DNA from: an uncultured Candidatus Saccharibacteria bacterium
GTDB lineage: Bacteria > Patescibacteriota > Minisyncoccia > UBA6257 > GWB1-50-10
DNA: 30,558 nucleotides
NCBI GenBank assembly: GCA_964528655.1
Contig: CAZGST010000001.1
Location: 12,061 to 42,618 of the forward strand
Reading direction: 5' to 3'
Shown: piece by piece, positions 6,024 to 30,558 of the stretch
How positions within the stretch are numbered: position 1 is the first letter of the stretch
How the letters are laid out: the number at the start of each line of letters is the position of its first letter
The notes under the pieces: model-generated
What the model was told of the DNA's origin: nothing
What the model saw: the letters and a program-made list of their open reading frames with translations, nothing else
Databases searched by the model: none
Program-made: the position numbers and the translations under genes

Positions 6024-7790
6024 ATGCAAAAATCCTGTCAAAACTGTGATAGTACTTTTCAAATAGAACTAGAAGATCTAGCGTTTTATGAACGCATACA
6101 GGTCGCCGCTCCCACCTGGTGCAGCGAGTGCCGATTACGGCGCCGGCTTCTCTTTCGCAACGAACGATTTTTGTATAAAAGAAAAAGTGATTTCTCCGGG
6201 AAAGAAATCTTTACGATGTATCCGCAAGAATCAGAAGTAAAAGTGTACGAAAACGAAATCTGGTTTGGAGACGAGTGGGATGCGATGGAGTATGGATTAG
6301 AATATGATCCCACAAAATCCTTTCTCATCCAACTACTTGAACTCTCCCGTAAAGTACCAAGGTTTGCCCTGTCTACACTCTACGGCGTAAACAGTGATTA
6401 CGCGAACAACTACACCGGTTTCAAAAACTGTTATTTAGCGTTTCACGGAAATTACGCCGAAGACTGTCTCTACGGCACAGGTTTGAACTATTCCAAAAAC
6501 TGCGTAGACAATACAGAAGCGGATCACTCTGAGAATTGCTATGGGAATTTTTGCATTGAGCGCTGCGCAAACACATTCTGTTCAGTTCAATGCTCAGAGT
6601 CCTTTAATCTTTACCTCTGCAAAAGCTGTGTCGGTTGCAATGACTGCATCGCATGCGTGAATCTACGTGGTAAAAAGCACCATATCTTCAATAAACCCGA
6701 AACCAAAGAAGCGTATGAGAAAAAAATGCGGGAGTTCAATCTCGGCTCTCACAACGCGCTCGAAAGCTTAAAAACCAAGGCACATGCTTTTTGGAAACAG
6801 TTCCCAGTTCGTTACATGTACGGAACAAAAAATCTGAACTGCACCGGTGACTACATCTCTAACTCAAAAAATGTGAATCGCTCGTTTATTGTGAAAGACG
6901 GAGAAAATATTCGTTACAGCTCTCATATCCAACACGGACCCACAAAGGACTGCTACGACTATAGTGTGTGGGGCGATAAGGCTGAGCTTGTATATGAAAG
7001 CGCAGTGGTTGGATTAGGCGTAAGTAACATGCGTTTTTGCTTCGAATGTTGGAACGAGGTAATGGACGCAGAGTATTCACTATATTCTTCCTCTTCATCG
7101 CACATATTTGGTTGTGTGGGCATAAAGAAAAAACAGCACTGTATCTTGAATAAACAGTATAGTGAAAACGAATACCACACACTGCGAGAAAAAATAATAA
7201 AAGACATGGACGAGAGGCCATTTATAGACAAAAGTGGTCACGTCTACCGGTATGGAGAATTTCTCCCGCCACTATTTTCTCCATTTCCCTATAATCACAC
7301 GAACGCGCAAGACTATTTCCCATTGAGTAAAGGAGAGTGTTTAGCACAGGGTTACGTCTACAAAGAAAATGAGCATCGTGACTATTCGAAAGTAGTCAAA
7401 AGCACAGAGCTACCAGATACTATTGCGGAAACGCCAAGCGTTATCACAGAAGCAGTGGTAGCGTGCAAAAGCATTGAGGAAGATAGACGAGCAGCTGAGA
7501 AACGGAACTGTGCTGAGGCATTCCGTATTCTCCCGCGGGAGCTTCAGTTCTATAAGACTCACAACATACCACTTCCACAACGTTGCTATCATTGTCGACA
7601 TTTTGAACGAATACAGAACCGTAACCCGATTAAGTTTTACAAGAGACAATGCGCGTGCAAAGGAGGATCAAACTCTACAGATCACGCTCACAACAACCAC
7701 CCTTGTCCCAACGAATTTCTAACCTCCTACACCCCCGAAAGAAAGGACATCATATATTGTGAAGCATGCTATCAACAAGAAGTTATATAG
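6024..7790 (+). CDS. Cys-rich multi-metal-finger protein, paralog P1
   Basis: Starts MQKSCQNC; contains PTWCSECR..RR..RNER, two Cys-rich repeat blocks and GEFLP; ends YCEACYQQEVI. Start ATG 6024 chosen by alignment with the other paralogs. Confidence 0.9.
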   Translation: MQKSCQNCDSTFQIELEDLAFYERIQVAAPTWCSECRLRRRLLFRNERFLYKRKSDFSGKEIFTMYPQESEVKVYENEIWFGDEWDAMEYGLEYDPTKSFLIQLLELSRKVPRFALSTLYGVNSDYANNYTGFKNCYLAFHGNYAEDCLYGTGLNYSKNCVDNTEADHSENCYGNFCIERCANTFCSVQCSESFNLYLCKSCVGCNDCIACVNLRGKKHHIFNKPETKEAYEKKMREFNLGSHNALESLKTKAHAFWKQFPVRYMYGTKNLNCTGDYISNSKNVNRSFIVKDGENIRYSSHIQHGPTKDCYDYSVWGDKAELVYESAVVGLGVSNMRFCFECWNEVMDAEYSLYSSSSSHIFGCVGIKKKQHCILNKQYSENEYHTLREKIIKDMDERPFIDKSGHVYRYGEFLPPLFSPFPYNHTNAQDYFPLSKGECLAQGYVYKENEHRDYSKVVKSTELPDTIAETPSVITEAVVACKSIEEDRRAAEKRNCAEAFRILPRELQFYKTHNIPLPQRCYHCRHFERIQNRNPIKFYKRQCACKGGSNSTDHAHNNHPCPNEFLTSYTPERKDIIYCEACYQQEVI

Positions 7791-7824
7791 TCTAAATGTG
7801 CTTTTCCTTGAACCAACGGTAAAG

Positions 7825-7858
7825 TTGTCATAATTCACTAAAAGATGTATAATTATAC
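7825..7858 (+). promoter_or_regulatory. sigma70-like promoter with a perfect palindrome over the -10
   Basis: TTGTCA (7825-7830), 17-nt spacer, TATAAT (7848-7853). The palindrome GTATAATTATAC spans 7847-7858. Confidence 0.65.
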
Positions 7859-7899
7859 TATCTAAAAAGCTACAAGTTAATTATATAAAAACCTAGACT

Positions 7900-9363: not shown

Positions 9364-9367
9364 AGTA

Positions 9368-9395
9368 TTGACATACATACACCATGATGTATAGT
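9368..9395 (+). promoter_or_regulatory. TA operon promoter with an operator-like inverted repeat
   Basis: TTGACA (9368-9373), 16-nt spacer, TATAGT (9390-9395). Inverted repeat ATACAT-N8-ATGTAT (9373-9392) lies across the spacer and both boxes. Confidence 0.65.
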
Positions 9396-9403
9396 AGCAA
9401 TAT

Positions 9404-9661: not shown

Positions 9662-9662
9662 G

Positions 9663-10073
9663 ATTTTTGTCGATACGAGCTACTTTGTTGCGTTCTCCAA
9701 ACCAAATGATTCCTTGCACAAAGAGGCTCTAGTAATCGAAGAAAAGATAAGAAAAGAGGGCATGGAGATAGTTATCTCAAACCTTATTTTCATCGAAACG
9801 GTAACAGTACTCTCACAACAAGTGGGCCATGGGACAGCAATAGCAATGGGTGAGTATCTAGAAAAAGATTTAAAAAATCCGATTATTTTTATCGATAAAG
9901 TGCTTCATGGTCAATCCTCGGAGATATTTAAAAAGAACAAAGACAAAAACATCAGCTTCACAGATTGTAGCGTGGTAGCAGTAATGGAATCAGAGCATAT
10001 TCAAAAACTCCTTACGTTCGACAAGCATTTCCAGAAATTGAGAAAATTTTATGACTTTGATTTCTTTAACTAA
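9663..10073 (+). CDS. vapC: VapC-like PIN-domain toxin; no canonical start codon, so possibly inactivated or using a non-AUG start
   Basis: The frame extends upstream of the ORF-track start (9714) to KIFVDTSYFVA, the first PIN motif. It also has FIET, SFTDC and LTFDKHF. No ATG/GTG/TTG lies between the in-frame TAG at 9630 and IFVD. Start coordinate is provisional (ATT). Confidence 0.75.
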   Translation: MFVDTSYFVAFSKPNDSLHKEALVIEEKIRKEGMEIVISNLIFIETVTVLSQQVGHGTAIAMGEYLEKDLKNPIIFIDKVLHGQSSEIFKKNKDKNISFTDCSVVAVMESEHIQKLLTFDKHFQKLRKFYDFDFFN

Positions 10074-10075
10074 CA

Positions 10076-11851
10076 ATGAATCAAACACTAAGGGTGTGTC
10101 AGAGTTGTAAACAAAGTTTCGAAATCACTCCCGAGGACCTTGAGTTTTACTCCAAAATAAAAGTCCCCGCGCCTACGTTTTGTGCTGACTGTCGTCTAGG
10201 GCGAAGAATGAGTTTTCGAAATGAGTTCACCTTCTATAAGCGATCTTGTGATCTATGTAAGAAAAGTATTATCTCTACCTACCGACCCTCGGTAGCGTGT
10301 CCAGTATACTGCGTGCACTGCTGGTACAGCGACGCATGGACTGCGGAAGACTACGGTATGCAGGTAGATTTCAATCAGCCTTTCCTAAGTCAGGTGAAAA
10401 CGCTCATGCAGAAAGTGCCCCACATTGGCACATTTCAAATGAACTGTGTGGAGTCTGATTACACAAACTACGCCTTCGATAGTAAGCGTGGGTACCTCGT
10501 AACAGGGTATGTAGAATCAGAGTCCTGCTCGTATGGGAATATTATTTGGCAATCAAAAGATTCACTTAACTGCTTCTATCTAGTGAAATCAGAGTTGTGC
10601 TACGAGTGTGTAAGCGTTAGTCAGTGTTACCGTGTCTCTTTTGGGGAAGACTGCGTCGCATGCAACAATTCGTTCTTTTTGTACAACTGTCGAAACTGCT
10701 CAAATTGTATAGGGTGTATAAACCTCGTAGGTAAAGAGTACTGGATGTTTAATAAGCCTGTTTCAAAAGAAACATATCAAGAGTTTATGAGCAAACTCGA
10801 ACCACTAACTGTAACAAAGATCGAAGAACTACGTAATCAATTTCTCCACCTAAAAAAGAACACAATACATCGGTATGCCAACCTTGTAAATACATTAAAT
10901 ACGACTGGGAACAATGTAAGAAATAGCAAAAATACCAAAAGTGCATTTTATGCCAATGATCTCGAAAACTCAGGATATCTTTTTATCGCAAGTAAAATAA
11001 AAGAGGGATTCGACGTCACAAATACACCAGGATTAGAAATGGGTTATGAATGCGTATCCGCAGTTGGGCTCTATAATGGTCTTTTCTCAAGTTTAAGTGG
11101 AGGAAGCGAGTACGTCCAATACTGCGAATTGTGTCCAAACGCAAAGAATGCGTTCGGATGCATAGGAATGAGAAAAGCAGAATACTGTATTTTGAATAAA
11201 CGCTACACCAAAGAAGAATATGAGGGTCTAAAAACTGAAATAATTGAACACATGGTGAAAGTGCCGTATGTAGATAGGGGAAACAGGGTATACCAATATG
11301 GAGAGTTTTTCCCGATTGAACTTTCTCTCTTTCCGTATAATGATAGTCAAGCAAATGATTATTTCCCTCTAAGCCGAGAGGAAGCCATGCTAAAGAATTT
11401 TCCATACGAAGAACGTGAAATAAAAGCATACACTACAACCAAATCCGGAAGTGCGTTACCAGAATCTATCAACGAAGTGGATGAGAGCATCTGTAAAGAA
11501 ATAATTTCGTGCATGGAGTGTAGGAAGGCCTACAGGATTATTTCTTCGGAACTGGAATTTTACAAGAAAATCGGGATTCCTCTGCCCCGTAAGTGTCCTT
11601 CATGCAGGCATGCTTTTAGGACAAAAAAAAGAAATCCCCCACACTTATTTCATCGCGAATGTGGGTGTAGGGGGAGCGCGTCAGCTTTATTGGAACCTCA
11701 GAAAAGTGAGCCTGAAAAAGGCATATTTCAGAATAGACAAGGGCATATTCATGGAGGAGGTCCGTGCAAAAAACAATTTGAAACTACGTATGCGCCAGAA
11801 AGATCAGAAATCATCTACTGCGAACCATGTTATCAATCAGAAGTGATTTAA
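10076..11851 (+). CDS. Cys-rich multi-metal-finger protein, paralog P2
   Basis: Same motif order as P1: CQSC, PTFCADCR, RNE, GEFFP, PLPRKCPSCR; ends YCEPCYQSEVI. Confidence 0.9.
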   Translation: MNQTLRVCQSCKQSFEITPEDLEFYSKIKVPAPTFCADCRLGRRMSFRNEFTFYKRSCDLCKKSIISTYRPSVACPVYCVHCWYSDAWTAEDYGMQVDFNQPFLSQVKTLMQKVPHIGTFQMNCVESDYTNYAFDSKRGYLVTGYVESESCSYGNIIWQSKDSLNCFYLVKSELCYECVSVSQCYRVSFGEDCVACNNSFFLYNCRNCSNCIGCINLVGKEYWMFNKPVSKETYQEFMSKLEPLTVTKIEELRNQFLHLKKNTIHRYANLVNTLNTTGNNVRNSKNTKSAFYANDLENSGYLFIASKIKEGFDVTNTPGLEMGYECVSAVGLYNGLFSSLSGGSEYVQYCELCPNAKNAFGCIGMRKAEYCILNKRYTKEEYEGLKTEIIEHMVKVPYVDRGNRVYQYGEFFPIELSLFPYNDSQANDYFPLSREEAMLKNFPYEEREIKAYTTTKSGSALPESINEVDESICKEIISCMECRKAYRIISSELEFYKKIGIPLPRKCPSCRHAFRTKKRNPPHLFHRECGCRGSASALLEPQKSEPEKGIFQNRQGHIHGGGPCKKQFETTYAPERSEIIYCEPCYQSEVI

Positions 11852-11939: not shown

Positions 11940-13706
11940 ATGAATAAACAATGTCAAAACTGCAAAACCAATTTCTCTATCGAAAACGAGGACCTTGAGT
12001 TCTACTCCAAAATAAAAGTCCCGACACCCACCTGGTGCCCCGAGTGCCATCTCATTCGTCGCATGCTCTGGAGAAATGAACGCGCACTCTATCGCAGGCC
12101 ATGCAGCAAGTGTGGCAAGGAAAAAATTACAATGTACCCAAGTGAGAGTCCATACACAGTCTACTGTCTCGACTGCTGGTGGGGCGACACGTGGAACGGG
12201 GATGAATTCGGTCGAGAGTATAGCTTCCAAAAAACCTTTTTCGAGCAGTTCCGTGATCTGCTCCGCACTGTGCCGCGTCCAAGCACCATACAACAGCAAA
12301 ACGTACGATGTGATTATGTGAACCGTGTGAGTCAGAGCAAAGACTGCTACCTTATCTTCGGAGCAAACTACAACGAAAACTGTTTCTACGGCACCCAGAT
12401 CAATAACTGCAAGGACTCAATGGACTCCTTCAACTTGCAGTTGTCAGAGCTGTGCTATGGCTGTACAGACTGTTCGGGTTCCTACAGACTCCTCTACTCC
12501 AAAGATTGCATAAGCTGCACAAATTCCGAACTCCTCACAGACTGCCGAAATTGTGACTCATGCTTTGGATGTGTGAATCTAAGAAACAAAAAACACTGCG
12601 TTTATAATGAGCAGCTCACAAAAGAAGAATATGAGAACAAGGTAAGCGAAATGAACATGCATACTCGTGAGGGAGTGATATCCGCAAAACAAGGAGCAGA
12701 TGAAGCAGCCTTAAAAGGTATTTTTCCAAATATTATTTCTAAGGCTTGCGAACACGTGAGCGGTAACTGGCTAGATGGTGTGCGAGGTGGATACAACTGC
12801 TATGCATGCCGGAGTATCGAAAACGGAAAGAATCTTTTCTCGGTAATTGAAGCAAAAGACGTCCAAGACTTTACCTATTGGGGAAGGGGATCGGAATTAG
12901 TGTATGACACGATCAGTGTTGGCATGCAATGTAGCAATATCCGTTTCTGCAATGAGCTATGGAATGGGGTAGTAGACGCACAGTACTGTATGAACTGTCC
13001 AGGCTCATCTCATATATTCGGGTGCATCGGGGTAAAGAAAAAAGAATATTGCATTTTGAACAAGCAATACACAAAGGAAGAGTTTGAAAGTCTAGTACCA
13101 AAAATCATCGACCACATGAATGAGCATCCGTACAAAGACGCGCTAGGAAGAGTGTATCCCTATGGCGAATTTCTCCCACCAGAACTTTCCCTCTTCGGCT
13201 ACAACGAAACAATGGCACAGGAGTACTTTGCCCTCTCTGACTCAGAAGCGAAATCAAAGGGCTTCCGATGGGCAACACCAGAAAAGAAAAGTCATAACGT
13301 AACAATTGAAGTTGGTACGGTACCAAACGATATTGAACTAGTCGAAGAGAGCATCACAAAAGAAACTATCCGTTGCGCCCACGCAAAAGAAGGGATCGTA
13401 AGTTGCAACGAGCAATGTGCATCAGCCTTCCGCATCACACCTAAAGAACTTGAGTTTTACAAGAAACTAAACATCCCGCTCCCGACAATCTGCCACAACT
13501 GCCGTCACTTCGAACGTCTCTCTCGTCGGAATCCAATTCACCTGTGGGGGAGAGGGTGCTGTTGTCCTGCAGAAAAACGGTACACGAACACTGCAGCCCA
13601 CTTCCACGCACCCGAGTCTTGTCCAAATGAATTCCAAACCACGTACGCTCCAGAAAAACCGGAAACCGTATATTGCGAAACCTGTTACCAATCCGAAGTC
13701 GCCTGA
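11940..13706 (+). CDS. Cys-rich multi-metal-finger protein, paralog P3
   Basis: MNKQCQNC...RNERALY...GEFLP...; ends YCETCYQSEVA. Confidence 0.9.
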   Translation: MNKQCQNCKTNFSIENEDLEFYSKIKVPTPTWCPECHLIRRMLWRNERALYRRPCSKCGKEKITMYPSESPYTVYCLDCWWGDTWNGDEFGREYSFQKTFFEQFRDLLRTVPRPSTIQQQNVRCDYVNRVSQSKDCYLIFGANYNENCFYGTQINNCKDSMDSFNLQLSELCYGCTDCSGSYRLLYSKDCISCTNSELLTDCRNCDSCFGCVNLRNKKHCVYNEQLTKEEYENKVSEMNMHTREGVISAKQGADEAALKGIFPNIISKACEHVSGNWLDGVRGGYNCYACRSIENGKNLFSVIEAKDVQDFTYWGRGSELVYDTISVGMQCSNIRFCNELWNGVVDAQYCMNCPGSSHIFGCIGVKKKEYCILNKQYTKEEFESLVPKIIDHMNEHPYKDALGRVYPYGEFLPPELSLFGYNETMAQEYFALSDSEAKSKGFRWATPEKKSHNVTIEVGTVPNDIELVEESITKETIRCAHAKEGIVSCNEQCASAFRITPKELEFYKKLNIPLPTICHNCRHFERLSRRNPIHLWGRGCCCPAEKRYTNTAAHFHAPESCPNEFQTTYAPEKPETVYCETCYQSEVA

Positions 13707-13738
13707 AAAAGGATGAGACCTCATTTTCGTGCTCTCTT

Positions 13739-15505
13739 ATGAACATACGTATTTGTGAAAACTGCAAGCAAAACTTCACTATTGCTCCCGAAGACTTCGA
13801 GTTCTACAAAAGACTAGATGTTCCTCCGCCTACGTTTTGCCCCGAGTGTCGCATGATCCGACGAATGACCTTCAGAAATGAACGGGCGCTCTATAAAAAC
13901 GAGTGTGCTCTCTGCAAGAAAAACGTGATGAGCATGTACGGAAAAGAGAAACCTGTTGTGGTATATTGTCTCGACTGCTACCAAACTGAAGATAAGTGGG
14001 ATCCGAGTGCTTATGGGGTTGATTACGATTTTTCAAAAACCTTTTTTGAGCAGTTTTCCAGCTTACTAAAGAAAGTTCCTCGTAGAGCGCTCTACCAGGA
14101 CTTTGCAACTCACAGCGACTATTCAAACTGGGCAGTCTACCTCAAAAACAGCTATCTTATTTTTGGCGGGCACCATTATGAAGATACGCTCTACGCAAGT
14201 TCCTGTTTTTATATTAACGACTGTTGTGATCTAGATTTCTGCAAGAAATGCGAAGCGTGCAGTAACTCCATCCACATACGGGACTGTCACAACGTTCATT
14301 GGAGTGCATATACGGAAAACTGCACTGACTCGTCTTTTCTCTACGGTTGCAAAAACTGTCACGACTGTATTGGGTGTACGAATCTCAAAAATAGTGCGTT
14401 TTGTATTTTGAATACTCAATACACAAAAGATGAATACACGGACAAAGTAAAAGAGCTCCAACTTGATTCACACGAAGGCTTGGAGAAAATGAAAAAAGAA
14501 GCCGCGAACCTCTCATTGCAGTTCCCCAGAAAATTTGCCTGGGTAAGAAATGCCCCAAATTCAACTGGCGATGATCTTGAGGGGGTAAAGGATTGCATCC
14601 ACTGTTTCACAGCAAGCGAAGACGAAAACTGTCGTTATGCCTTCTTTCTTCCTACAGGAGCAAAAGATTCCTATGATCTCGATCATGTTGGGTTAGGAGC
14701 AGAAAATGTCTACGAGGTAATGAGCGCGTTCGGAATAAATAGAGTGGTAGGGGGGTCGCGTATCTATTTTAGCCATGATATCTACTATTCCGATGACTGT
14801 TATAACTCAAGTAATCTCTTTGGGTGTATCGGCCTCCGTAAAAAAGAGTATTGCATTCTGAACAAGCAGTACTCGAAAGATGAGTATGAAAAGCTTTTCC
14901 CAAAAATAAAAGAGCATATGATGAGTACTCCATACAGAGATAAAAAAGGAAGGACATATGGTTTTGGTGAATTCTTCCCGACAGAAATTTCCCCCTTTTG
15001 TTACAACGAGACAACTGCCGAAGAGTATTTCACGCTTACAGAAAATGAAGCGGTAAATAAAGGATATGCATGGAAAAGAGAAGAAACAAAAAAATACGAG
15101 GTAACACGAGAACCAAAAGACATACCAAACATACAAGAAGTCACAGATGACATCACGAAACAAATTATTCGCTGCGAACACGGGGGATTGTGTAATGATG
15201 GGTGCACAACCGCATTCCGAATCATTCCACAAGAGTTAGAGTTCTATAAAAAGGTACATCTTCCTCTGCCAAAGATGTGTCCAAATTGCCGACATTATGA
15301 ACGATTGGGTAGAAAAAACCCAATCACTCTCTACGATAGAAATTGCGATTGCATAAATGGAACATCAAAAAACAGTGTCTATAAAAACCTTGCCACGCAC
15401 GTCCATAATGAGAATACCTGTGGCGCTGAATTTAAAACTCCCTACGCCCCAACTCGACCAGAAATCATCTACTGCGAGCAATGTTATCAATCCGAAGTTG
15501 CATAA
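13739..15505 (+). CDS. Cys-rich multi-metal-finger protein, paralog P4
   Basis: MNIRICENC...RNERALY...GEFFP...; ends YCEQCYQSEVA. Start reassigned to ATG 13739, which removes the overlap with P3. Confidence 0.9.
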   Translation: MNIRICENCKQNFTIAPEDFEFYKRLDVPPPTFCPECRMIRRMTFRNERALYKNECALCKKNVMSMYGKEKPVVVYCLDCYQTEDKWDPSAYGVDYDFSKTFFEQFSSLLKKVPRRALYQDFATHSDYSNWAVYLKNSYLIFGGHHYEDTLYASSCFYINDCCDLDFCKKCEACSNSIHIRDCHNVHWSAYTENCTDSSFLYGCKNCHDCIGCTNLKNSAFCILNTQYTKDEYTDKVKELQLDSHEGLEKMKKEAANLSLQFPRKFAWVRNAPNSTGDDLEGVKDCIHCFTASEDENCRYAFFLPTGAKDSYDLDHVGLGAENVYEVMSAFGINRVVGGSRIYFSHDIYYSDDCYNSSNLFGCIGLRKKEYCILNKQYSKDEYEKLFPKIKEHMMSTPYRDKKGRTYGFGEFFPTEISPFCYNETTAEEYFTLTENEAVNKGYAWKREETKKYEVTREPKDIPNIQEVTDDITKQIIRCEHGGLCNDGCTTAFRIIPQELEFYKKVHLPLPKMCPNCRHYERLGRKNPITLYDRNCDCINGTSKNSVYKNLATHVHNENTCGAEFKTPYAPTRPEIIYCEQCYQSEVA

Positions 15506-15771: not shown

Positions 15772-16167
15772 ATGCGTGTTGTAGTGGATACGAATGTATA
15801 TATTTCTGCTGTTCTTGGAGGCGGCACATGCGCAAAAGTTTTACAAAAACTCTCTACTTCGGGGAGTTTTGTGTTTATATCTCCGTCCTTAGTGTATGAA
15901 GTAAGGAGAGTGCTAAGAGAAAAGTTTCATATGAGTGCCTCAAATGTAAGGCGTGTCGAAGAAGACATGAAAAGTAGGGCATTCCTTATTCATCCAAAGA
16001 AAAGAGTAAGAGAGGTGAAGGGCAATAAGGGAGATAACAGAATTCTGGAATGCGCGTACGCAAGTAAAGCAGACCATCTTATAACAGGGGACAAGAAACA
16101 CCTACTCGCACTAAAAAGTTTCAAGGGTACAAAGATTATTTCTCCAAGCGAATTCTTGAAGACATGA
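15772..16167 (+). CDS. PIN-family putative toxin (PIN_3 / TIGR00305-like)
   Basis: MRVVVDTNVYISA, D.RILECA..SKADHLITGDKKHLL and IISPSEFL are characteristic of PIN_3 proteins. Confidence 0.85.
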   Translation: MRVVVDTNVYISAVLGGGTCAKVLQKLSTSGSFVFISPSLVYEVRRVLREKFHMSASNVRRVEEDMKSRAFLIHPKKRVREVKGNKGDNRILECAYASKADHLITGDKKHLLALKSFKGTKIISPSEFLKT

Positions 16168-21296: not shown

Positions 21297-22976
21297 ATGG
21301 ATGAAGAGAAAAAAACATGTGAGGCCTGCGAAAAAGTCTTTACAATCGGAAAAAAAGACAGAGAACTCTACGCGCAATTGAAAGTAGCTCCTCCTCTGTA
21401 CTGTCCGAGGTGCGGTGTTCAGAAAATGATGGCGCTCAGAAACGAAAGAATCCTTTACAAAAGAGCTTGCGACAAATGCAAGAAAGACACCCTCTCCATC
21501 TACCATTCGAGCGCGCCCTACACTGTCTACTGTCACGAGTGCTGGTGGGGAGACTCATGGGATGGAGGTGAGTATAAAATGGAATACGACAAAAATCGTA
21601 ACCTCCTAGATCAGGTAAACGAATTACAGCACAAAGTCCCACGAGAAGCACTCATTATCTTGAACTCTACAAACTGCGACTATGGAAACAACATCAGAGA
21701 TTCAAAAGACTGCTACTTCAGTTTCCTGATCGCAAATAGTGAAAACATTCTCTACTCCACCTGGTTCGTGGGAAGCAAGGACTGCTTTGACTGTCAGAAG
21801 GTAGTGGACTCAGAACTAGTCGCGCATTCTGTTGATGTTGTAAAGTGCTACAAAAGTGCTTATCTCCAAGACTGCTCTGATAGTTCAGAGTGTTATTTCA
21901 GTTATGACCTAAGAGGATGTAGTAATTGTCTCTTCTCCTCAAACCTCAGGAACGCGACGTACAGGATAGAAAATATAGAGTATACGAAAGATGAGTATAG
22001 CAAAAAACTGAAAGAGATAATGGATGGAAAATACACAACACTGCAGGAGTCAATAAAAAAGTACAACGACCTGAAAAAAAGCGCTATCCGAAAGTATGTG
22101 AACCAGATAAACTCATCCGGAGTAACAGGTAACTACCTTCAAGGATGCGCGAAAAGTGAGTTTTGTTTTGAAGCAATATCTGTAGAAGACACAAAAGCAG
22201 TTGCAAGTATTCTGAACTCCAAAAACACCGAGTACGGTTACGCGATCGGAGTACAGCCCACAGAATTTATTTTTGGTTCCTCTGTGATAAAAGGAGGCTC
22301 AAATATAAGGTACTCATACAATCTTTTCAACTGCTCTCATTGTATCTACTGCGACAGCCTGATCTCGTGCAAAGACTGCATCGGCTGCGTAGGCATAAAG
22401 AAAAAAGAGTATTGTATTCTGAACACGGAATACACAAAAGAAAATTACGAGAGAATCTACAAGGAACTGCAGGAAAATGGAGAGCTAAAGAACTTCCCGT
22501 CTCCAGCCTTCTCCACATTCGCCTATAACGAAACCGCAGCAGAGGACTACTACCCCGCATCAAAAGAAAAAGCTATTAGCATAGGGTACAGATGGCAAGA
22601 TGAAACAACCTCCACAAAAGGACAGGAGACACTGACGCCAGAAAATATAAAAGATTCTATTATGGATGTAGACGAATCCATAATAAGAGAAGTTTTGAAA
22701 TGCACGGATTGCGGAAGAAATTACCGCATTGTAAAGAGAGAGTTGGAGTTCTGCAAAAATTTCCTGCTCCCCATATCTCGCACCTGCCCCCAATGCCGGT
22801 TTAAGGGAAGAAGAACACAAAGACTGCCTTTTGATCTTTGGAATGGGAATTGCAAGTGCAACAAATCAGATCATGGACATGAAGGATTATGCAAAAATAG
22901 CTTTGAAACAAGCTACGCCCCCGACCGTCCCGAGACCATTTACTGCGAAGAATGCTATCAGAAAGAAGTAATATAG
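21297..22976 (+). CDS. Cys-rich multi-metal-finger protein, paralog P8
   Basis: MDEEKKTCEAC...RNERILY...; ends YCEECYQKEVI. Start reassigned to ATG 21297, 2 nt after the P7 stop. Confidence 0.9.
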   Translation: MDEEKKTCEACEKVFTIGKKDRELYAQLKVAPPLYCPRCGVQKMMALRNERILYKRACDKCKKDTLSIYHSSAPYTVYCHECWWGDSWDGGEYKMEYDKNRNLLDQVNELQHKVPREALIILNSTNCDYGNNIRDSKDCYFSFLIANSENILYSTWFVGSKDCFDCQKVVDSELVAHSVDVVKCYKSAYLQDCSDSSECYFSYDLRGCSNCLFSSNLRNATYRIENIEYTKDEYSKKLKEIMDGKYTTLQESIKKYNDLKKSAIRKYVNQINSSGVTGNYLQGCAKSEFCFEAISVEDTKAVASILNSKNTEYGYAIGVQPTEFIFGSSVIKGGSNIRYSYNLFNCSHCIYCDSLISCKDCIGCVGIKKKEYCILNTEYTKENYERIYKELQENGELKNFPSPAFSTFAYNETAAEDYYPASKEKAISIGYRWQDETTSTKGQETLTPENIKDSIMDVDESIIREVLKCTDCGRNYRIVKRELEFCKNFLLPISRTCPQCRFKGRRTQRLPFDLWNGNCKCNKSDHGHEGLCKNSFETSYAPDRPETIYCEECYQKEVI

Positions 22977-23354: not shown

Positions 23355-25127
23355 ATGGAATCTCATCAGTGCCAAAATTGCAAGAAGAACCTCATCATCG
23401 AGCCAGAGGATCTTCATTTTTATGAACGAATCAATGTTTCTCCACCCACATTCTGTCCGGAATGTAGAATGATCCGCCGTTTCACCTGGCGCAACGAACG
23501 CTCTCTCTACCACGGAGCATGCAAAGCAACAGGTAAGAAAGTGATCACAATGTTCGGTCCAGACTCTGGCGTAACAGTATACGACAGAGACTACTTCTGG
23601 GGGGATGCGTGGGACCCGAGAGATAACGGCCTAAATTACGACTTTCAAAAAACATTCTTCCATCAGTTTGAAGAGCTTCTGAAAAAAGCTCCGTTGCCAA
23701 ACCTAGCAAATAATAACAACATAAACTCCGAATACGTAAATCACAGCCAGCAGTGCAAAGACTGCTATCTCATATATGCTTCCCACATAAACGAGAACTG
23801 CTCGTATTCCACCGGTCTTGCGGAATGCAAAGACTCTCTAGACCTCTACAAGTGTGGACATGTTGTAGAAGGGTATGACGACTCGATGTGTAATACCTGC
23901 AACAAGGTATTCTTTGGAAGCAATACTGAAAATTCGATAGAATCAATGTTCGTGGAATCATGCAAAAATGTTTCAAGTTGTTTGGGTTGTGTGAATTTGA
24001 AAAACACCAAGTACTGCATATGGAACAAACACCTCCCCAAAGAAGAATACGAAAAAGAAATAAAAAACTATGATTTTGGCAGCTACAAAAAAACGCAAGA
24101 ATTCAAAGAAAGATTTGAAAAATTCAAAAAAGTATTCCCAAAAAGATACGCCAATATTCTTCAAGGGGTAAGTGTTACAGGAGACAATATTGTTGGGTCA
24201 AAAAACTGCAAATACTGCTTTGATCTCTATGGTGAAGTCGAAGACTGTAAGTATGTAACGCATGGTTTACAAGCAAAAGACAGCTACGACATGTACGGAT
24301 TCGGTGTGAATATCGAGCTCATGTATGAAGGAGTTGATACCGGCATCAATGCCTCGCGGTGTCTAGGTAATGTCTACTCCCACAGTTGTCGGAACGCCTC
24401 GTATACGTACTGTTGCCACAATTCGAATAATATATTCGGTTGTGTGGGTCTGAAAAAAAATGAATACTGCATTCTGAACAAGCAACACTCCAAAGAAGAG
24501 TACAACGATCTCATTCCTAGAATAATCGAGCACATGAAGGCAATGCCATATAAGGATAAGAATGGAAGAGTGTACGTCTACGGAGACTTCTTCCCTTCAG
24601 AAATCTCACCCTTTGCCTACAATGAATCAATTGCTGAGGAGTACTTTGGAATTACCAAAGAAGAGGCCGAAGCTAACGGATACAGATGGAGTAGGGAAGC
24701 AGAAAAAAGTTACCCAGTTACAATACGATCTGAGGAACTACCAGATCACATAAAAGACGTTCAGGATGAAATAACAAAAGCCATTATTCAGTGTGAACAT
24801 AGCGGGAAATGCAAGGATCAGTGCACAACTGCTTTCCGTATTACGGAAAGTGAGCTTCAATTTTACAGAAAACACAATTTAACGCTCCCACGCCTCTGTC
24901 CCAATTGCCGGCATTATACCCGTCTTGCAAAGCGGACCCCATTCAAGCTTTGGGACAAAAAATGCGACTGTAATACAGAAAAAATTAAAGTAGGGAAGTA
25001 TGAGAACAGAAACACTCACACTCATGGTGAATCACCCTGCCCCGAGGAGTTCAAAACTGCTCACAACCCTGAGAAAAAAGAAGAAATAATTTACTGCGAA
25101 CAGTGCTATCAAGCGGAAGTTTCCTAA
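23355..25127 (+). CDS. Cys-rich multi-metal-finger protein, paralog P9
   Basis: MESHQCQNC...RNERSLY...GDFFP...; ends YCEQCYQAEVS. Confidence 0.9.
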   Translation: MESHQCQNCKKNLIIEPEDLHFYERINVSPPTFCPECRMIRRFTWRNERSLYHGACKATGKKVITMFGPDSGVTVYDRDYFWGDAWDPRDNGLNYDFQKTFFHQFEELLKKAPLPNLANNNNINSEYVNHSQQCKDCYLIYASHINENCSYSTGLAECKDSLDLYKCGHVVEGYDDSMCNTCNKVFFGSNTENSIESMFVESCKNVSSCLGCVNLKNTKYCIWNKHLPKEEYEKEIKNYDFGSYKKTQEFKERFEKFKKVFPKRYANILQGVSVTGDNIVGSKNCKYCFDLYGEVEDCKYVTHGLQAKDSYDMYGFGVNIELMYEGVDTGINASRCLGNVYSHSCRNASYTYCCHNSNNIFGCVGLKKNEYCILNKQHSKEEYNDLIPRIIEHMKAMPYKDKNGRVYVYGDFFPSEISPFAYNESIAEEYFGITKEEAEANGYRWSREAEKSYPVTIRSEELPDHIKDVQDEITKAIIQCEHSGKCKDQCTTAFRITESELQFYRKHNLTLPRLCPNCRHYTRLAKRTPFKLWDKKCDCNTEKIKVGKYENRNTHTHGESPCPEEFKTAHNPEKKEEIIYCEQCYQAEVS

Positions 25128-25203: not shown

Positions 25204-26394
25204 TCATGCCCATGCAACAGGAGCATAGGCAGGAACAACTTCAACGTATGGCCATAGGTAACGACCTTCCGTTGCAGTGGTCCCATTCAACCGTGCTCGG
25301 GCAGGGGTTGACCTCGCCTGAGCAGGTGTAGATTGTCGCGCCATAGCTGGAGTTGACTCTCGTGCCATCGCCGGCGTGGAACGAGCTTGTGCAGGGGTTG
25401 ACGCACTAACCAATTGAATGAACGGTGCATCTCCTCCATCTAGGCTCTCACCACGCAGAGCACACGCAATCGCAGTGCGCGTTCGTGCCGCAACAGTCAT
25501 TTCGAACACTCTTCGCCGCTCGGCTATGAAATCTTGTCCAAAAAGCACCGACTCGACTCCGCTAAGCTTTACGTTGCCGAGCCTTTTTTCAGTGGAGAGC
25601 ATGCAGAGCGACAAGGCTCCTAAAGGTCCAACAGCGCACATGCCGTCAGCGCATGCACCACATAGCTCCTTTGCATCGACACCAGGCGCGATTGCCGATC
25701 GACCCACGTGTCGCTCCTCATCCTTGCTTATGGCCTCGAGTGGCACTCCATTCTGATGTAGGAATGCTCGGGTTTTCTGAAAATGACCAGAGTTTTGCGG
25801 GAGTTCGATATAGCCCACGCGAATGCGAACCCCGCTCCTAGTAACGGTCCGAATTGTCTGCAGGGTTTCAGCCCAATCATTGCGTTTAGTGATCGCACAA
25901 TGAACTTTGCTATCAGTAGAGTAAAAACTCGTCGCATAAATAATACCCTGATCTCGCATAAATCGAAGCGCCCGCCGATGAGGTGCCCGTGAACCTGTAG
26001 AAAAAAACTCCACGCTCCTGAAACCGAGCAGTTTTGTTAGAACGAGCAGATCAAACCAGAAAGGGCTCAAGAGCGGATCGCCGCCACTGATCTGGATTCC
26101 GGTGCAGCCAACGGACGCTAACTGCACAAAAAGTTCTCTCCAGTTCTTCAACGTCATGAATCCTTCTTCAGGGACCCCACCGCTCCTTTCTGCCTCATCA
26201 CGATCACCCGTAGGACTCGATTTATCACAGCAGTGGACGCATTGCCTCCCACAATTAAATGTAATGAGCGCCTCAAAGAAGCGAAGTGAAATGTGGCTAA
26301 GAGGTACACCCGAAGGCATAATCTCTGCCTCAGCCAATAGAGCTGCATTTCTGGACAGCACATCAGTTCGTCTAGATCCGGCTTGTCTTTGCAT
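25204..26394 (-). CDS. Radical SAM enzyme with a twitch/SPASM-like Cys motif and a fused C-terminal repeat tail
   Basis: CxxxCxxC motif (NCGRQCVHC), SGGDP motif, CADGMCAVGPLGALSLC (= C-x10-G-x4-C). GGAGG lies 4 nt upstream of ATG 26394 on the minus strand. Confidence 0.9.
   Translation of the reverse strand: MQRQAGSRRTDVLSRNAALLAEAEIMPSGVPLSHISLRFFEALITFNCGRQCVHCCDKSSPTGDRDEAERSGGVPEEGFMTLKNWRELFVQLASVGCTGIQISGGDPLLSPFWFDLLVLTKLLGFRSVEFFSTGSRAPHRRALRFMRDQGIIYATSFYSTDSKVHCAITKRNDWAETLQTIRTVTRSGVRIRVGYIELPQNSGHFQKTRAFLHQNGVPLEAISKDEERHVGRSAIAPGVDAKELCGACADGMCAVGPLGALSLCMLSTEKRLGNVKLSGVESVLFGQDFIAERRRVFEMTVAARTRTAIACALRGESLDGGDAPFIQLVSASTPAQARSTPAMARESTPAMARQSTPAQARSTPARARLNGTTATEGRYLWPYVEVVPAYAPVAWA
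25291..25401 (-). repeat. Five in-frame peptide repeats STPAxAR(E/Q) in the radical SAM tail
   Basis: STPAQAR-STPAMARE-STPAMARQ-STPAQAR-STPARAR (37 aa). The DNA copies differ mostly at synonymous positions. Confidence 0.9.
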
Positions 26395-26563: not shown

Positions 26564-28363
26564 ATGAGCAATAGTTATGTGTGCCAAAATTGCCACAAAA
26601 ACTTCGAAATAGAAGAAGAGGACATCATATACTACCAAAAGATAAACGTTCCATATCCAACGTGGTGCCCAGAATGTCGACTCATCCGCCGCATGATCTG
26701 GCGAAATGAGTACATTCTCTACAGGCATAAGTGCGACGTAAGAGGACACGAAGAAAATTTGATCTCCCTCTACCACGAGAAAAGCCCCATGAAAGTATAT
26801 GATCAGAAGTACTGGTGGTCCGACGAATGGGACGCAACTGAATATGGAAAAGAGTATGATTTTACCAAACCTTTTTTCGAACAATTCAAAGAATTACTTC
26901 ACACTGTTCCAACAACCAGTCTTATGGGGAACTACGCTTCTCTTGTAAGAAGCGACTACTCGAACTGGGCCGGGGATTTGAAAGACTGCTATCTCATTAC
27001 GGACGCGGACGTAGTAGAAAACTCTCTCTATGGTTCAGGAATTTTCAAATGTAAAGACGTTTGCGATGTAGATAATGCCTCCGAATGCGAGCTCTGCTAC
27101 GACTGCTACAACATCCACTCGTGTTATAAGGTTGTCGGCTCTATAAACTGCCACGAATGTCATAATGTCTACTTTTCAAAAGGCTGTATAGGCTGTTCGA
27201 ACTGCTTCGGATGCATCAATCTTCGAAAAAAATCATTCTGTATACATAACAAAGAGTACAGCAAAGAAGAATACGAAAAAAAGATCCAGGAGCTCTTCGA
27301 CGGATCAAGAAAAAAATACGAAGAAAGTAAGAAAAAATCGCGAGACTTCTTTCTCAACTACCCGCATAAGAATCTTCGAGGCACACACAACGTAAACTCA
27401 TTTGGAGACTACATCTATCACACAAAAAATACAAAGTATGGATTTTTCGTAACAGACGCTGAAGACTGCAAATATGTATCACTCCTCCACTCCAAAAGTG
27501 CAAAAGACTGTTACGACTACACTGACTGGGGGGAAACAGCTGAGCAGCTTTATGAGTGTATCGCAGTTGGCATGGGCGCAAGTAAAGTACGCTGGAGCCA
27601 TATGGTATACAATAATGTAAAAGAAGTTGACTACAGCTATTACTGCATTAACTCATCAAATCTTTTTGGGTGCTGTGGCATCCGGAAAAAACAGTACTGT
27701 ATTCTGAATAAACAATATTCGAAAGAAGAGTATGAAACCCTGCTCTCCGCGATTAGAGAACACATGAACAGCACGCCGTATAAAGACTCTGACGGAAGAA
27801 CCTATGGCTACGGCGAGTTCTTCCCTCCAGAAATTTCTCCATTCGCATACAACGAAACCATCGCTCAAGAATACTTTCCACTCACAAAAGAGGAAGCAAC
27901 AGCGAAAGGTTACGCCTGGAAGGAAGAGGATGGAAGGAGCTACCAAATTACGAAAAAACCGAATGATGTGCCAAAAACAGTAACTGAATCCGAAGACTCA
28001 ATTTGTAATGAAATCATAGAATGCGCTCACATGAGTTTTGCCCTGAAGTGCAATCATCAGTGTACAACCGCTTTCAGGATCACTCTTCAAGAACTTGAGT
28101 TTTATAGAAAGATGAATCTTCCACTTCCGCAAAGTTGTCCCCGTTGCCGTCATTACGAAAGAATATTCGAACGAAACAAAATTCAGCTTTCAGAACAATC
28201 GTGTGATTGTAATGGATCAGCATCCAAAACTCGCCTCTATAAAAACGAAAGCAAGCACTCCCATGGCAACGTGCCATGTAACAAACTTTTCAAAACTACG
28301 TATCCAAAAAACCATGAAGAAATAATATATTGTGAAGAATGCTATCAGTCCGAAACGTCCTAG
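26564..28363 (+). CDS. Cys-rich multi-metal-finger protein, paralog P10
   Basis: MSNSYVCQNC...RNEYILY...GEFFP...; ends YCEECYQSETS. Confidence 0.9.
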   Translation: MSNSYVCQNCHKNFEIEEEDIIYYQKINVPYPTWCPECRLIRRMIWRNEYILYRHKCDVRGHEENLISLYHEKSPMKVYDQKYWWSDEWDATEYGKEYDFTKPFFEQFKELLHTVPTTSLMGNYASLVRSDYSNWAGDLKDCYLITDADVVENSLYGSGIFKCKDVCDVDNASECELCYDCYNIHSCYKVVGSINCHECHNVYFSKGCIGCSNCFGCINLRKKSFCIHNKEYSKEEYEKKIQELFDGSRKKYEESKKKSRDFFLNYPHKNLRGTHNVNSFGDYIYHTKNTKYGFFVTDAEDCKYVSLLHSKSAKDCYDYTDWGETAEQLYECIAVGMGASKVRWSHMVYNNVKEVDYSYYCINSSNLFGCCGIRKKQYCILNKQYSKEEYETLLSAIREHMNSTPYKDSDGRTYGYGEFFPPEISPFAYNETIAQEYFPLTKEEATAKGYAWKEEDGRSYQITKKPNDVPKTVTESEDSICNEIIECAHMSFALKCNHQCTTAFRITLQELEFYRKMNLPLPQSCPRCRHYERIFERNKIQLSEQSCDCNGSASKTRLYKNESKHSHGNVPCNKLFKTTYPKNHEEIIYCEECYQSETS

Positions 28364-28367
28364 TTTT

Positions 28368-30077
28368 ATGAATTCAGATACAAAAACTTGCCAAAACTGC
28401 CACAACACTTTTCAGATAGAGCCCGAAGATGTAGCTTTCTATGAAAAAGTAAAAACCCCACCTCCAACATTCTGCCCAAAATGCCGATTACAAAGAAGGC
28501 TTGCCTGGTTTCAGCTATTCAACCTCTATAAGCGACCTTGTGATCTTTGTAAAAAAGACTTCATCTCCATCTTTCAAAAAGACGCTCCGTATATCGTCTA
28601 CTGCCCAACATGCTGGTGGTCCGATAAGTGGGATGATACGAAATACGGGCGTGAGTACGACTTTTCTCGAACCTTCTTTGAACAATTTAATGATCTTCTT
28701 CACGAAGCACCGATCTTAGGACTCTCGGTCGATACGTTCTCTCTCGCAACCTCTCCCTACAACAGTAACGTTGGCAACCTAAAAGATTGTTACTTTCTTA
28801 TCCTGGCAAACTATAACGAACGTTGCGGTTATGGGTATCTGGTTGGCTTTTGTAATTCCACATATGATTCCTCGGTAATCCACGAATGCGAGGCATGCTT
28901 CGACACAATACACGGATATAAAAACTACAAGTGTATAGGCGCAAATCACACAACGAACTCCATTGAATGCATCTTCACACGAGACTGTATTAACTGTCAG
29001 AACTGTTTTGCATCGGCAAACTTGAGGAACAAACAGTATCACATCTTTAACAAACCTTTTTCTAAAGAGGATTATTTCAATGAAACAAAAAAATGGAACC
29101 TAGGTTCTTACACAACCTACAAAGAGCTCGAAAAAAAAGCTCACGACCACTGGAAACAGTATCCACCAAAGCCTATATGGAATGAATTCAATGTAAATTG
29201 TACTGGGAATTATGTGTTCGAATCAAAAAATTGTAAGGAATGCTATGAAGTATCGCGTGCAGAAAACTCAAAATATCTTCAAATCCTAAACGACCTAACC
29301 CCCATAACTGAATGCTATGATGTAACCTGTTGGGGCGAAACACTTTCATTGTCCTATGAGGGTGCCACAATTGGAGGCCAGGCCACAGGGCTAAAATTCT
29401 GCCATGAAACAGGTCTTGATACGCATAACCTTGAATACTGTGAGGGAGTAGTCTCGAACTCAAACCACTGTTTTGGTTGTGTAAGCATGAAACACACAGA
29501 GTACGCCATACTGAACAAAAAGTATTCAAAGGAAGAATACGAAAATCTACGTGAAAAAATTATAAAACACATGGGTGATATGCCGTACAAAAATAATCAG
29601 GGGATTTTCTATCGCTGCGGAGAGTTCTTTCCGACAGAAATGAGTATGCAAGGATACAATAAGACCCTTGCTCAAAACTTCTTTCCTCTTGTTAAGTCAG
29701 AAATAAAAAAACTAGGATACAAGTACGTCGAAGAAACTAAATCGGAATACACCTCAACCACAAAAGGCACCGAACTCCCTGACCACATAAAAGACGCGTC
29801 TTCATCAATAGTAAATGAGGTTATCGAGTGTACGAAATGTAAGAGAGGATTTCGAATGATTGAGAGAGAACTCGCATTTCTAAAAGAAATGAATCTACCA
29901 CTCCCCAGAGAGTGCCCCCAATGTCGTATTCAGTTAAAATTCAACCAATGGGTTAAAAACTTGCAGCTCACAAAAAGAATTTGTGACAAGTGCAGCATCC
30001 AATTCGAAACCCCCCATACTGAAGATCGAGCACCAATAATCTGGTGTCCAAAGTGTTACCAGTTAGAAGTGGCGTAG
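28368..30077 (+). CDS. Cys-rich multi-metal-finger protein, paralog P11 (divergent)
   Basis: MNSDTKTCQNC..., lacks the RNER motif; ends WCPKCYQLEVA. Start reassigned to ATG 28368. Confidence 0.9.
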   Translation: MNSDTKTCQNCHNTFQIEPEDVAFYEKVKTPPPTFCPKCRLQRRLAWFQLFNLYKRPCDLCKKDFISIFQKDAPYIVYCPTCWWSDKWDDTKYGREYDFSRTFFEQFNDLLHEAPILGLSVDTFSLATSPYNSNVGNLKDCYFLILANYNERCGYGYLVGFCNSTYDSSVIHECEACFDTIHGYKNYKCIGANHTTNSIECIFTRDCINCQNCFASANLRNKQYHIFNKPFSKEDYFNETKKWNLGSYTTYKELEKKAHDHWKQYPPKPIWNEFNVNCTGNYVFESKNCKECYEVSRAENSKYLQILNDLTPITECYDVTCWGETLSLSYEGATIGGQATGLKFCHETGLDTHNLEYCEGVVSNSNHCFGCVSMKHTEYAILNKKYSKEEYENLREKIIKHMGDMPYKNNQGIFYRCGEFFPTEMSMQGYNKTLAQNFFPLVKSEIKKLGYKYVEETKSEYTSTTKGTELPDHIKDASSSIVNEVIECTKCKRGFRMIERELAFLKEMNLPLPRECPQCRIQLKFNQWVKNLQLTKRICDKCSIQFETPHTEDRAPIIWCPKCYQLEVA

Positions 30078-30165
30078 TAAGAGTTATTCGTCAACGCGTT
30101 CACGGGTTACTATTTATATTATAAAACTCGCAAATACTAACCCGACAACCCACAAACACCCACAC
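30078..30165 (+). other. 88-nt structured intergenic element, copy B
   Basis: CGGGTTA (30103-30109) pairs with TAACCCG (30138-30144), extended by TATTT/AAATA. Shares motifs and exact length with 11852-11939. Confidence 0.55.
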
Positions 30166-30558
30166 ATGCAAAAAACTTGCCAAAACTGTAAACAAATATT
30201 TGAGATGGAGCCTGAAGACCAGGCTTTTTATACGAAAATCAACGTTCCTCCTCCAACGTTCTGTCCCGACTGCCGCCTGCAACGTCGTCTCATGTTCCGT
30301 AACGAACGTACACTCTATAAACGAACGTGTGATTTATGTAAAAAATCAACGCTCTCTGTGTATTCCGAAGACAAACGCTTCACTGTATACTGTCCGGAAT
30401 GCTGGCAATCGGATAAGTGGGATCCATTCCAATATGGAAAAGATTTAGACTTTCAAAAGCCATTCCTCGAACAATTCAAAGAACTCCTGGAGAAAGTGCC
30501 AAGGTCAAGTGTGTATCAGAGAAAAACCGTAAATACGCCTTACGCAAACTATGTTGAC
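30166..30558 (+). CDS. Cys-rich multi-metal-finger protein, paralog P12, 3' truncated by the window (absent from the ORF track)
   Basis: My translation from ATG 30166: MQKTCQNCKQIFEMEPEDQAFYTKINVPPPTFCPDCRLQRRLMFRNERTLYKRTCDLC..., open to the window end. Confidence 0.9.
   Translation, partial: MQKTCQNCKQIFEMEPEDQAFYTKINVPPPTFCPDCRLQRRLMFRNERTLYKRTCDLCKKSTLSVYSEDKRFTVYCPECWQSDKWDPFQYGKDLDFQKPFLEQFKELLEKVPRSSVYQRKTVNTPYANYVD

Follow-up and report, generated by a model that had tools for sequence, protein, structure and literature searches.

The DNA analyzed here, a 30,558-nucleotide (nt) stretch referred to as the window (C1:12061-42618), belongs to an uncultured Candidatus Saccharibacteria bacterium (assembly of 726 kb, 83% complete) whose source DNA is groundwater metagenomes, with no RNA run listed. 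Between positions 6009 and 30558 it encodes 11 full-length copies and one N-terminal fragment of a family of large cysteine-rich proteins, all on the plus strand, according to the open reading frame (ORF) listing and a 12-sequence alignment. Copies 2-13 on contig C1 are bracketed by two orphan ATPases resembling type IV coupling proteins (T4CPs), here named A1 and A2, in one co-directional cassette. This placement is the sole functional lead that we have for the family, and it was missed in an earlier note on the same DNA. Based on the sequence evidence set out below, we propose with a probability of about 0.4 that the copies may be a set of clients or adaptors working with A1/A2-type ATPases.

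A1 and A2 are both soluble and only distant relatives of TraD, VirD4 and CedD. In A1, Walker A and Walker B are intact, and its matches to TraD/VirD4-like models of NCBIfam fall far below the cut-offs. A2 is 43% identical to A1, has intact Walker motifs and ends in an above-threshold zf_Tbcl_2 ribbon. In related genomes, A1 lies directly upstream of the array in eight cases (G002, G003, G005, G009, G011, G021, G022, G024) and A2 adjoins copies in six (G003, G005, G009, G022, G024, G028). In two genomes without the family (G006, G026), A1 adjoins A2. We clustered the neighbors of family copies without prior assumptions in 79 loci of other species, within the flanks that were fetched. The commonest neighbor was a TrwB/VirD4-like ATPase, present in 27 of the 79 loci compared with roughly 4-6% expected, by our estimate, from random placement, and 40 of 41 ATPase genes were co-directional with the family copy. 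Five more distant family-bearing genomes gave a mixed picture, with an ATPase adjoining the copies in two (G239, G284), within 3.4-3.7 kb in two (G071, G122) and none nearby in one.

DnaK (14 loci) and DnaJ (eight loci) were the next most frequent neighbors. Two cassettes recur, SecF-S-M-m-A1-F..F-A2 as in the window and dnaK-A2-F..F-A1-dnaJ, where F denotes a family copy and S, M and m are the genes listed in Table 1. The copies are between A1 and A2 in both contexts, indicating that the form of the cassette is kept while its surroundings change. In five loci (L035, L038, L051, L061, L065) the ATPases and copies stand between dnaK and dnaJ and are followed by cysS on the opposite strand. The dnaK-dnaJ cassette, which is found in several lineages, could also be taken to mean that the copies are proteostasis factors, namely holdases or co-chaperones that depend on zinc and cooperate with DnaK and DnaJ, and there is a precedent for this in DnaJ and Hsp33, of which the Cys4 zinc sites serve client handling. 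We consider such a role quite improbable. The cassette of this genome and of many others is instead preceded by SecDF-S-M-m, and dnaK and dnaJ are absent from its vicinity. DnaK and DnaJ are seen solely where the ATPases are also present, so that the link is to the ATPases. Moreover, no similarity of the copies to the CXXCXGXG domain of DnaJ or to Hsp33 was detected.

A second line of evidence is the co-variation of A1 with the family. We compared 12 family-bearing with 12 family-less relatives from the same taxonomic family, measuring identities to the proteins of the genome studied here (G000). A1 is 74-79% identical in genomes with the family, compared with 66, 59, 58, 55, 51 or 45% in genomes without it, and no A1-type gene was found in six of the latter. 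The corresponding values are 71-76% with and 71-75% without the family for A2, apart from two outliers at 55%, and 60-66% and 57-64% for SecD. These similar baselines imply that both groups are about equally related to G000. A clear co-variation of the membrane protein M with the family was rejected, given a shift from only 44-53% to 40-48% (M was not found in one family-less genome). In a tree of SecD plus A2, the family-bearing genomes do not form one clade: six changes are needed, a single change sufficed in 0 of 200 bootstrap trees, and the approximately unbiased (AU) test gave p = 0.045.

In the arrangement that we envisage, the constant zinc-ribbon ends and the C-terminal tail of the copies would dock to the hexameric ATPase or to a shared partner, and differences in solenoid surface between the paralogs would direct each copy to a separate target. 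The copies might themselves be the cargo, or they might serve as adaptors through which different clients reach the ATPase. Among 5,713 VirD4 homologues of Patescibacteria, only 148 are near virB4; the authors of that count could not link these homologues to the T4SS and suggested a possible exaptation for other functions (PMC12102498). The family is a candidate for what these orphan VirD4 homologues act on. The genome contains a locus for a type IV secretion system (T4SS) on contig C3 (L145, G000:C3:18000-27000, minus strand), which encodes a VirB4-like P-loop_TraG/AAA_10 ATPase of 583 amino acids, PrgI and a pilin, and thus an export of the copies is possible. This locus is on a different contig from the array and also holds several unnamed genes; the Pfam models for VirB4 (PF03135) and TrbL have no match in the genome. 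In a more specific version of the proposal, the copies would be zinc-capped rods that A1/A2 load onto the T4SS, or that load clients onto it, for delivery into the host cell. We regard this version as rather unlikely; if true, it would describe the first effector or adaptor repertoire for Paceibacteria episymbiosis.

Several observations weigh against a partnership with the ATPases. In 52 of the 79 loci there is no ATPase in the fetched flank, and single copies occur in unrelated housekeeping contexts. A1, A2 or both are present in 40 of 41 relatives with or without the family, and therefore the ATPases do not need the family. Conversely, G028 has the family beside A2, and no A1-type gene was found there. 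We also rejected the zf_Tbcl_2 ribbon of A2 as a family-specific docking domain, as it is also present in family-less genomes. The backbone of the species tree is weak and its well-supported branches alone force only one change; the independent events behind the link between A1 and the family may thus be few, somewhere from 1 to about 6. Finally, a permissive insertion site within a long operon could also account for the adjacency; a radical SAM gene, an EamA gene and toxin-antitoxin modules are further insertions there.

The earlier note, made from the sequence alone, had reported 11 complete copies and one partial copy in a tandem array of at least 12 that runs off the window edge. The copies and their shared strand are as described, and at least 12 is correct for the window; the total rises to 13 on contig C1 and, with eight more on other contigs, to ~21 in the genome, which together make up roughly 37 kb or ~5% of the assembly. 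The array is, however, interrupted by A1, two PIN toxin genes and a minus-strand radical SAM gene. It does run past the window edge, which coincides with a 10-N scaffold gap beyond which copy 12 resumes and a 13th copy follows. Counted from the aligned ATG, the copies are 556-599 amino acids long and take up ~19.7 kb of the window. Neighboring genes of the array are only 2, 3, 2 and 7 nt apart at four junctions, and at another junction a PIN gene and the copy after it share 4 nt. Four copies in the genome appear to be split in two. We rejected their interpretation as pseudogenes or programmed frameshifts because all four breaks are 10-N gaps (Table 1), and no copy is demonstrably broken. The paralogs evidently troubled the assembler, and joins across these gaps could be chimeric.

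The copies share 33-47% protein identity with the first copy, and 14 alignment columns are invariant over all 12. Each contains 32-44 Cys (5.6-7.8% of residues), 7-21 His and 7-15 CxxC motifs. The family comprises cytoplasmic proteins of ~590 amino acids, judging from the absence of a signal peptide and the presence of zinc ribbons. At each end there is a module of two zinc ribbons, one zf_Tbcl-like and one CxxC-x17-CxxC-like, and the N-terminal and C-terminal modules are homologous to one another (hhalign probability 99%, E 8e-18). The N-terminal knuckles C10, C13, C38 and C41 are invariant in the family alignment, and most copies have an HxH-bearing insert between the first two Cys of the C-terminal CxxC-x17-CxxC-like ribbon. 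In copies 1, 9 and 10, none of the four Cys of the second N-terminal ribbon is retained (residues about 57-85; for example, KSDFSGKE...VYENEIW where the consensus is CDLCxK...VYCxxCW), and this zinc site is thus dispensable. The C-terminal tail [VI]YCExCY[QN]xE[VI]x is present in 55 of 55 full-length copies from seven genomes, with its two Cys and the Tyr invariant. Mean net charge is +6.5 for the C-terminal ribbon module, -5.9 for the alpha/beta region preceding it and about -2.4 for the whole protein. The two solenoids have net charges of merely -3.7 and -0.9, based on which we rejected DNA mimicry by them.

Structure prediction and a Foldseek search, which the earlier note had suggested, yielded a solenoid model and no solved relative. 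The AlphaFold2 model of copy 10 (mean predicted local distance difference test score, pLDDT, 82.8; predicted template modeling score, pTM, 0.86) places zinc ribbons at residues 1-95, a helix at 104-114, a Cys-rich solenoid-like stretch at 121-232 with a pLDDT of only 58-71, helices at 234-263, a beta-solenoid at 267-385, a helix at 387-403, a well-modeled acidic alpha/beta region to about 480, and zinc ribbons at 483-599. The middle of the protein is accordingly predicted to consist of two thin beta-solenoid-like repeats, then a conserved acidic alpha/beta domain. A cap motif, GC.NLRNK.YCI.NK.Y(S/T)KEEY, closes each solenoid. It occurs twice per gene, ~453 nt apart, indicating that the core, like the ends, is an internal duplication. 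In the first solenoid, Cys columns recur at every third residue of a 12-residue register with an occupancy of 11-94%, these positions are filled by Cys or Ser, and the autocorrelation of the Cys pattern peaks at lags 3 and 12. This partially occupied register is less suggestive of conserved metal clusters than of the ladder in the core of a thin beta-helix.

A store or buffer of metal or Fe-S clusters, which the earlier note had offered as one of its readings, is very improbable in light of these features. It would agree with the sheer number of Cys and His per protein and with the zinc binding of related stand-alone CxxC-x17-CxxC proteins of Methanosarcina, but Cys account for merely ~6% of residues, the interior Cys are partly occupied and exchanged between paralogs along the ladder, and 3 of 11 copies do without the Cys of one ribbon. 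In Pfam and NCBIfam we found no match to a ferredoxin, metallothionein or other Fe-S family, and storage would not need ~20 diverged paralogs kept as orthologs.

Database searches assigned no characterized function to the family, in line with the earlier note. Nothing reached threshold among the profiles of Pfam, NCBIfam, PHROGs and PADLOC, a PADLOC scan of two copies gave no match at E<=0.01, and a sequence profile search of the PDB gave none at E<=10. Foldseek against the PDB returned nothing at E<=0.001 for either the whole model or its C-terminal half. With VIA-align against 48,161 chains, the whole model reached a Z of at most 4.6 and its C-terminal half one of at most 2.8, and the matches to the core were all beta-helix proteins (an ice-binding protein, LpxA, Ag43 and a budworm antifreeze protein). 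The AlphaFold database (AFDB) clusters and the ESM Atlas, searched by features and by shape, yielded only unnamed members of the same family. Sub-threshold matches are confined to the ends, at residues 5-44 (zf_Tbcl) and 521-553 (zf_Tbcl_2). The zf_Tbcl model PF13451 scores 20.4, 20.6 and 13.3 bits in three of eight copies and has no match in the rest, against a gathering threshold of 24 bits; the homolog P0029 bears a precomputed PF13451 match. By its sequence, the N-terminal zf_Tbcl-like module appears to be a divergent relative of PF13451 and not a scored member. Copy 6 scores 20.5 bits against PF23477 (threshold 27) and 11.3 bits against TIGR04272 of NCBIfam (threshold 36). In a genome-wide scan with zf_Tbcl_2, the C termini of the family scored 21-26 bits and only A2 passed, with 54.8 bits. 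In the literature searched, neither the family nor its Pfam domains are described.

Homologs carry, where they are named at all, the names "hypothetical" or "Zn ribbon nucleic-acid-binding protein", and the earlier note's expectation of unnamed hypotheticals in other genomes of the candidate phyla radiation (CPR) is borne out. The second name, used by one source, points to stand-alone nucleic acid binders, such as RNA or DNA chaperones or regulators, in which four ribbons would grip nucleic acid with a different target per paralog and the genes would be hitch-hikers in the operon of the ATPases. Ribbon modules of these kinds are usual in such proteins, the C-terminal module is strongly basic, and many lone copies are among housekeeping genes (ribonucleotide reductase, tRNA synthetases, a ribosome hibernation factor). 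Yet the protein as a whole is slightly acidic and its solenoids are not basic. Among known DNA- or RNA-binding folds there was no match, generic zinc fingers with Z<3 coming closest, and the co-directional A1-F-A2 cassette in two contexts and the co-variation of A1 would be left unexplained. We consider nucleic acid binding a credible but doubtful alternative to a partnership with the ATPases.

The family is undescribed and Paceibacteria-wide. A word-indexed search matched >7,985 clusters at 90% identity. Of clusters at 50% identity, an exhaustive search matched 5,503 with E<1e-3 and 2,294 with E<1e-30, the latter stemming almost entirely from Paceibacteria-type CPR bacteria; nearly all of the matched proteins are 550-610 amino acids long. 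According to record titles, the 79 loci of other species belong to Paceibacteria/Parcubacteria-type CPR bacteria (Giovannoni-, Jorgensen-, Lipton-, Staskawicz-, Nomura-, Niyogi- and Sungiibacteria, Minisyncoccia). Within the taxonomic family of this genome, 12 of 24 genera have the protein family (1 to 17 matches per genus, including several arrays of 9-14 tandem copies), compared with one of 16 other families of the order and 15 of 300 genomes sampled across the phylum. A homolog 51% identical to copy 10 is at the end of a contig labeled Aenigmatarchaeota (L002, GCA_038998945.1), and two are on short contigs labeled Gammaproteobacteria (L015, L060). These labels are unverified and are suspected to be binning errors, with transfers as the alternative.

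The paralogs of this genome are old. When 55 copies from G000 and six related genera are placed in a maximum-likelihood tree, they group by orthogroup and not by genome (the G000 label needs 13 changes, compared with a shuffled mean of 13.9). Orthogroups spanning genera are supported at 99-100%, and thus the paralogs predate these genera. Ortholog pairs are 53-68% identical with a nonsynonymous divergence (dN) of 0.25-0.38, about the divergence of SecD in the same genomes (57-66% identical). Synonymous divergence (dS) is saturated in every ortholog pair, so that a dN/dS ratio is not computable. Between paralogs, the ends are 46-55% identical and the middle is only 26-33% identical, whereas within orthogroups the corresponding identities are 0.58-0.68 for the ends and 0.57-0.61 for the solenoids. 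Direct-repeat analysis found DNA repeats between copies that reach no more than 60-80% identity, the best-conserved stretches included, in agreement with the earlier note, which had seen no long identical DNA. No recent duplication or gene conversion, of whatever length, has taken place among the copies. Purifying selection acts on stably different ancient paralogs, each represented by orthologs in further genera, that differ mainly in the solenoid middle, and the earlier proposal of an old, selected expansion is supported on all these counts.

The same data speak against the arms-race type of diversified recognition repertoire that the earlier note had proposed. A diversified immune or conflict repertoire, in which each paralog would recognize a different molecule of phage or host and a HerA/FtsK-type ATPase might be the motor or effector, would accommodate a family that is multi-copy, tandem, dispensable, variable in the middle and found in only part of the genomes sampled. 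There are PIN toxin genes in the array, a TOTE conflict-system gene on the same contig (Table 1), and a weak match of A1 to the PADLOC model mad8. We nevertheless consider this reading unlikely. The copies form conserved orthogroups and not lineage-specific bursts, their middle is as constrained as their ends within orthogroups, and orthologs diverge about as SecD does. Besides having no PADLOC or PHROG match, the copies contain no effector domain (nuclease, Sir2 or TIR), and tblastn against phage and plasmid collections found no family relative.

The retention of many conserved paralogs as a set, together with the rod-like solenoid architecture of the model, might alternatively suggest a structural role, with solenoid subunits of different paralogs assembling into a cytoplasmic heteropolymer or scaffold. 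A fixed assembly would not be expected to vary from 1 to about 21 copies among related genomes, and there is no match to bactofilin or another polymer family. This role seems to us, if anything, slightly less probable than one in proteostasis.

The features of the window and of the adjoining part of the contig are summarized in Table 1. S opens a conserved run, S-M-m-A1, and S orthologs are upstream of M and A1 in L017, L044, L071 and L074; m orthologs are between M and A1 in G005, L036 and L044. M, present in 39 of 41 relatives, is the counterpart of the N-terminal part of a type of coupling-protein-like ATPase of ~800 amino acids, and A1 matches positions 388-813 of the same phrog_5156. Judged by these matches, M and A1 look like a split version of this membrane-anchored ATPase type (A3). 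A3 is found as a single gene on contig C5 (G000:C5:10122-11423) and in nearly all relatives. The orthogroup of copy 6 includes copies of G009, G021 and G022. The radical SAM gene is probably a recent insertion, because its ortholog was not found in the arrays of six relatives (G003, G005, G009, G011, G021, G022); the stretch has a GC content of 0.476 compared with about 0.42, and a strong hairpin resembling a terminator is located at 25184-25155. Scans of the DNA for promoters and terminators yielded no more matches than shuffled sequence did.

Table 1. Genes of the family array and its surroundings (window positions unless a contig or locus is named)
Feature	Position	Strand	Evidence or remark
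S, 356 amino acids, sigma-70 region 4 domain	2866..3936	+	Pfam Sigma70_r4, E 1e-10
M, membrane protein, 481 amino acids	3957..5402	+	phrog_5156 positions 81-191 of 824
m, 173 amino acids, no family match	5407..5928	+	Travels with M and A1
Copy 1	6009..7790	+	Likely start ATG at 6024; family hidden Markov model (HMM) 846 bits
A1, TrwB/VirD4-like P-loop ATPase, soluble, 487 amino acids	7900..9363	+	Pfam TrwB_AAD_bind, T4SS-DNA_transf, TraG-D_C
PIN-domain toxin gene, inserted in array	9714..10073	+	Pfam PIN, E 3.5e-9; probably not part of the system
Copy 2	10076..11851	+	ORF listing, alignment, family HMM
Copy 3	11940..13706	+	ORF listing, alignment, family HMM
Copy 4	13742..15505	+	Aligned start within ORF 13673-15505
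PIN_3 toxin gene, insertion, 4-nt overlap with copy 5	15772..16167	+	Pfam PIN_3, E 3.4e-15
Copy 5	16164..17897	+	ORF listing, alignment, family HMM
Copy 6	17901..19571	+	Exact CxxC-x17-CxxC spacing at C terminus
Copy 7, 44 Cys	19603..21294	+	Orthogroup with G021 and G005 copies, 100% support
Copy 8	21297..22976	+	ORF listing, alignment, family HMM
Copy 9	23355..25127	+	ORF listing, alignment, family HMM
Radical SAM gene	25204..26394	-	Pfam Radical_SAM
Copy 10, the modeled copy	26564..28363	+	AlphaFold2
Copy 11	28371..30077	+	ORF listing, alignment, family HMM
Copy 12, first 131 residues	30166..30558	+	Cut at scaffold gap = window end
10-N gap inside a copy	C1:42619-42628		Copy 12, at window end
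EamA-like transporter gene	L012:1310-2221		Between copies 12 and 13
10-N gap inside a copy	C1:45647-45656
YGGT-like small membrane protein gene	L012:3988-4311		Between copy 13 and A2
A2, second TrwB-like ATPase	C1:46939-48798		Downstream of copy 13
TOTE conflict-system archaeo-eukaryotic primase (AEP) + ResIII/DEAD helicase fusion, 717 amino acids	C1:51921-54074 = L012:9303-11456	-	3 kb past A2
10-N gap inside a copy	C2 about 38310
10-N gap inside a copy	C20 about 5340

Paceibacteria-type CPR bacteria have genomes of <1 Mb, and the 10-20 diverged copies that some of them keep are a large investment of which the purpose is not known. The family, with its thousands of members, is without a curated profile or a solved relative and is not mentioned in the literature searched. 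Its position between orphan VirD4-like ATPases gives these ATPases their first candidate partners. The link can be put to the test by asking whether the copies bind A1 or A2 and whether they exit from the cell, and a positive or a negative outcome would be informative on the dealings of ultra-small episymbionts with their hosts.

Three groups of known proteins invite comparison. The first consists of proteins with zf_Tbcl (PF13451) and zf_Tbcl_2 (PF23477/TIGR04272) domains, the same ribbon pair that is found at both ends of the copies and that also occurs in other bacteria in stand-alone forms of ~100 amino acids with both domains. Stand-alone CxxC-x17-CxxC proteins of Methanosarcina mazei bind zinc (PMC12704099). 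The window copies score 13-21 bits, under the curated cut-offs of 24 and 27, and the known proteins are about 40-100 amino acids long without a solenoid core. Membership in this group would explain nothing about the function of the copies, because the function of those proteins is also unknown. Second, the first solenoid shares with the Cys-ladder beta-helices of beetle and budworm antifreeze proteins (PDB 1m8n) a 12-residue register with Cys or Ser at every third residue, and structural matches to the core include a ryegrass ice-binding protein (3ult, Z 4.6), LpxA (3.3) and 1m8n (2.2), all within the noise range of the tool. Antifreeze proteins are secreted and disulfide-bonded, whereas the family has zinc ribbons and no signal peptide.

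Finally, the family can be compared with the T4CPs (VirD4/TrwB/TraD), among them the orphan homologues of Patescibacteria, and with their substrates or adaptors. Unlike T4CPs, A1 and A2 have no N-terminal membrane anchor, score far below the T4CP family cut-offs and are not near the VirB4 locus. Families of T4SS substrates have a shared C-terminal signal, such as the XVIPCD or BID domain; no known signal domain was matched in the copies, which have only the conserved tail and the basic C-terminal module. Moreover, a protein held by several zinc sites is unlikely to be an unfolded T4SS substrate. The likeness lies in the family being encoded beside T4CP-like ATPases, in its co-variation with A1, in the T4SS channel genes present in the genome and, as in substrates with XVIPCD or BID domains, in the combination of a constant C-terminal region with a variable body.

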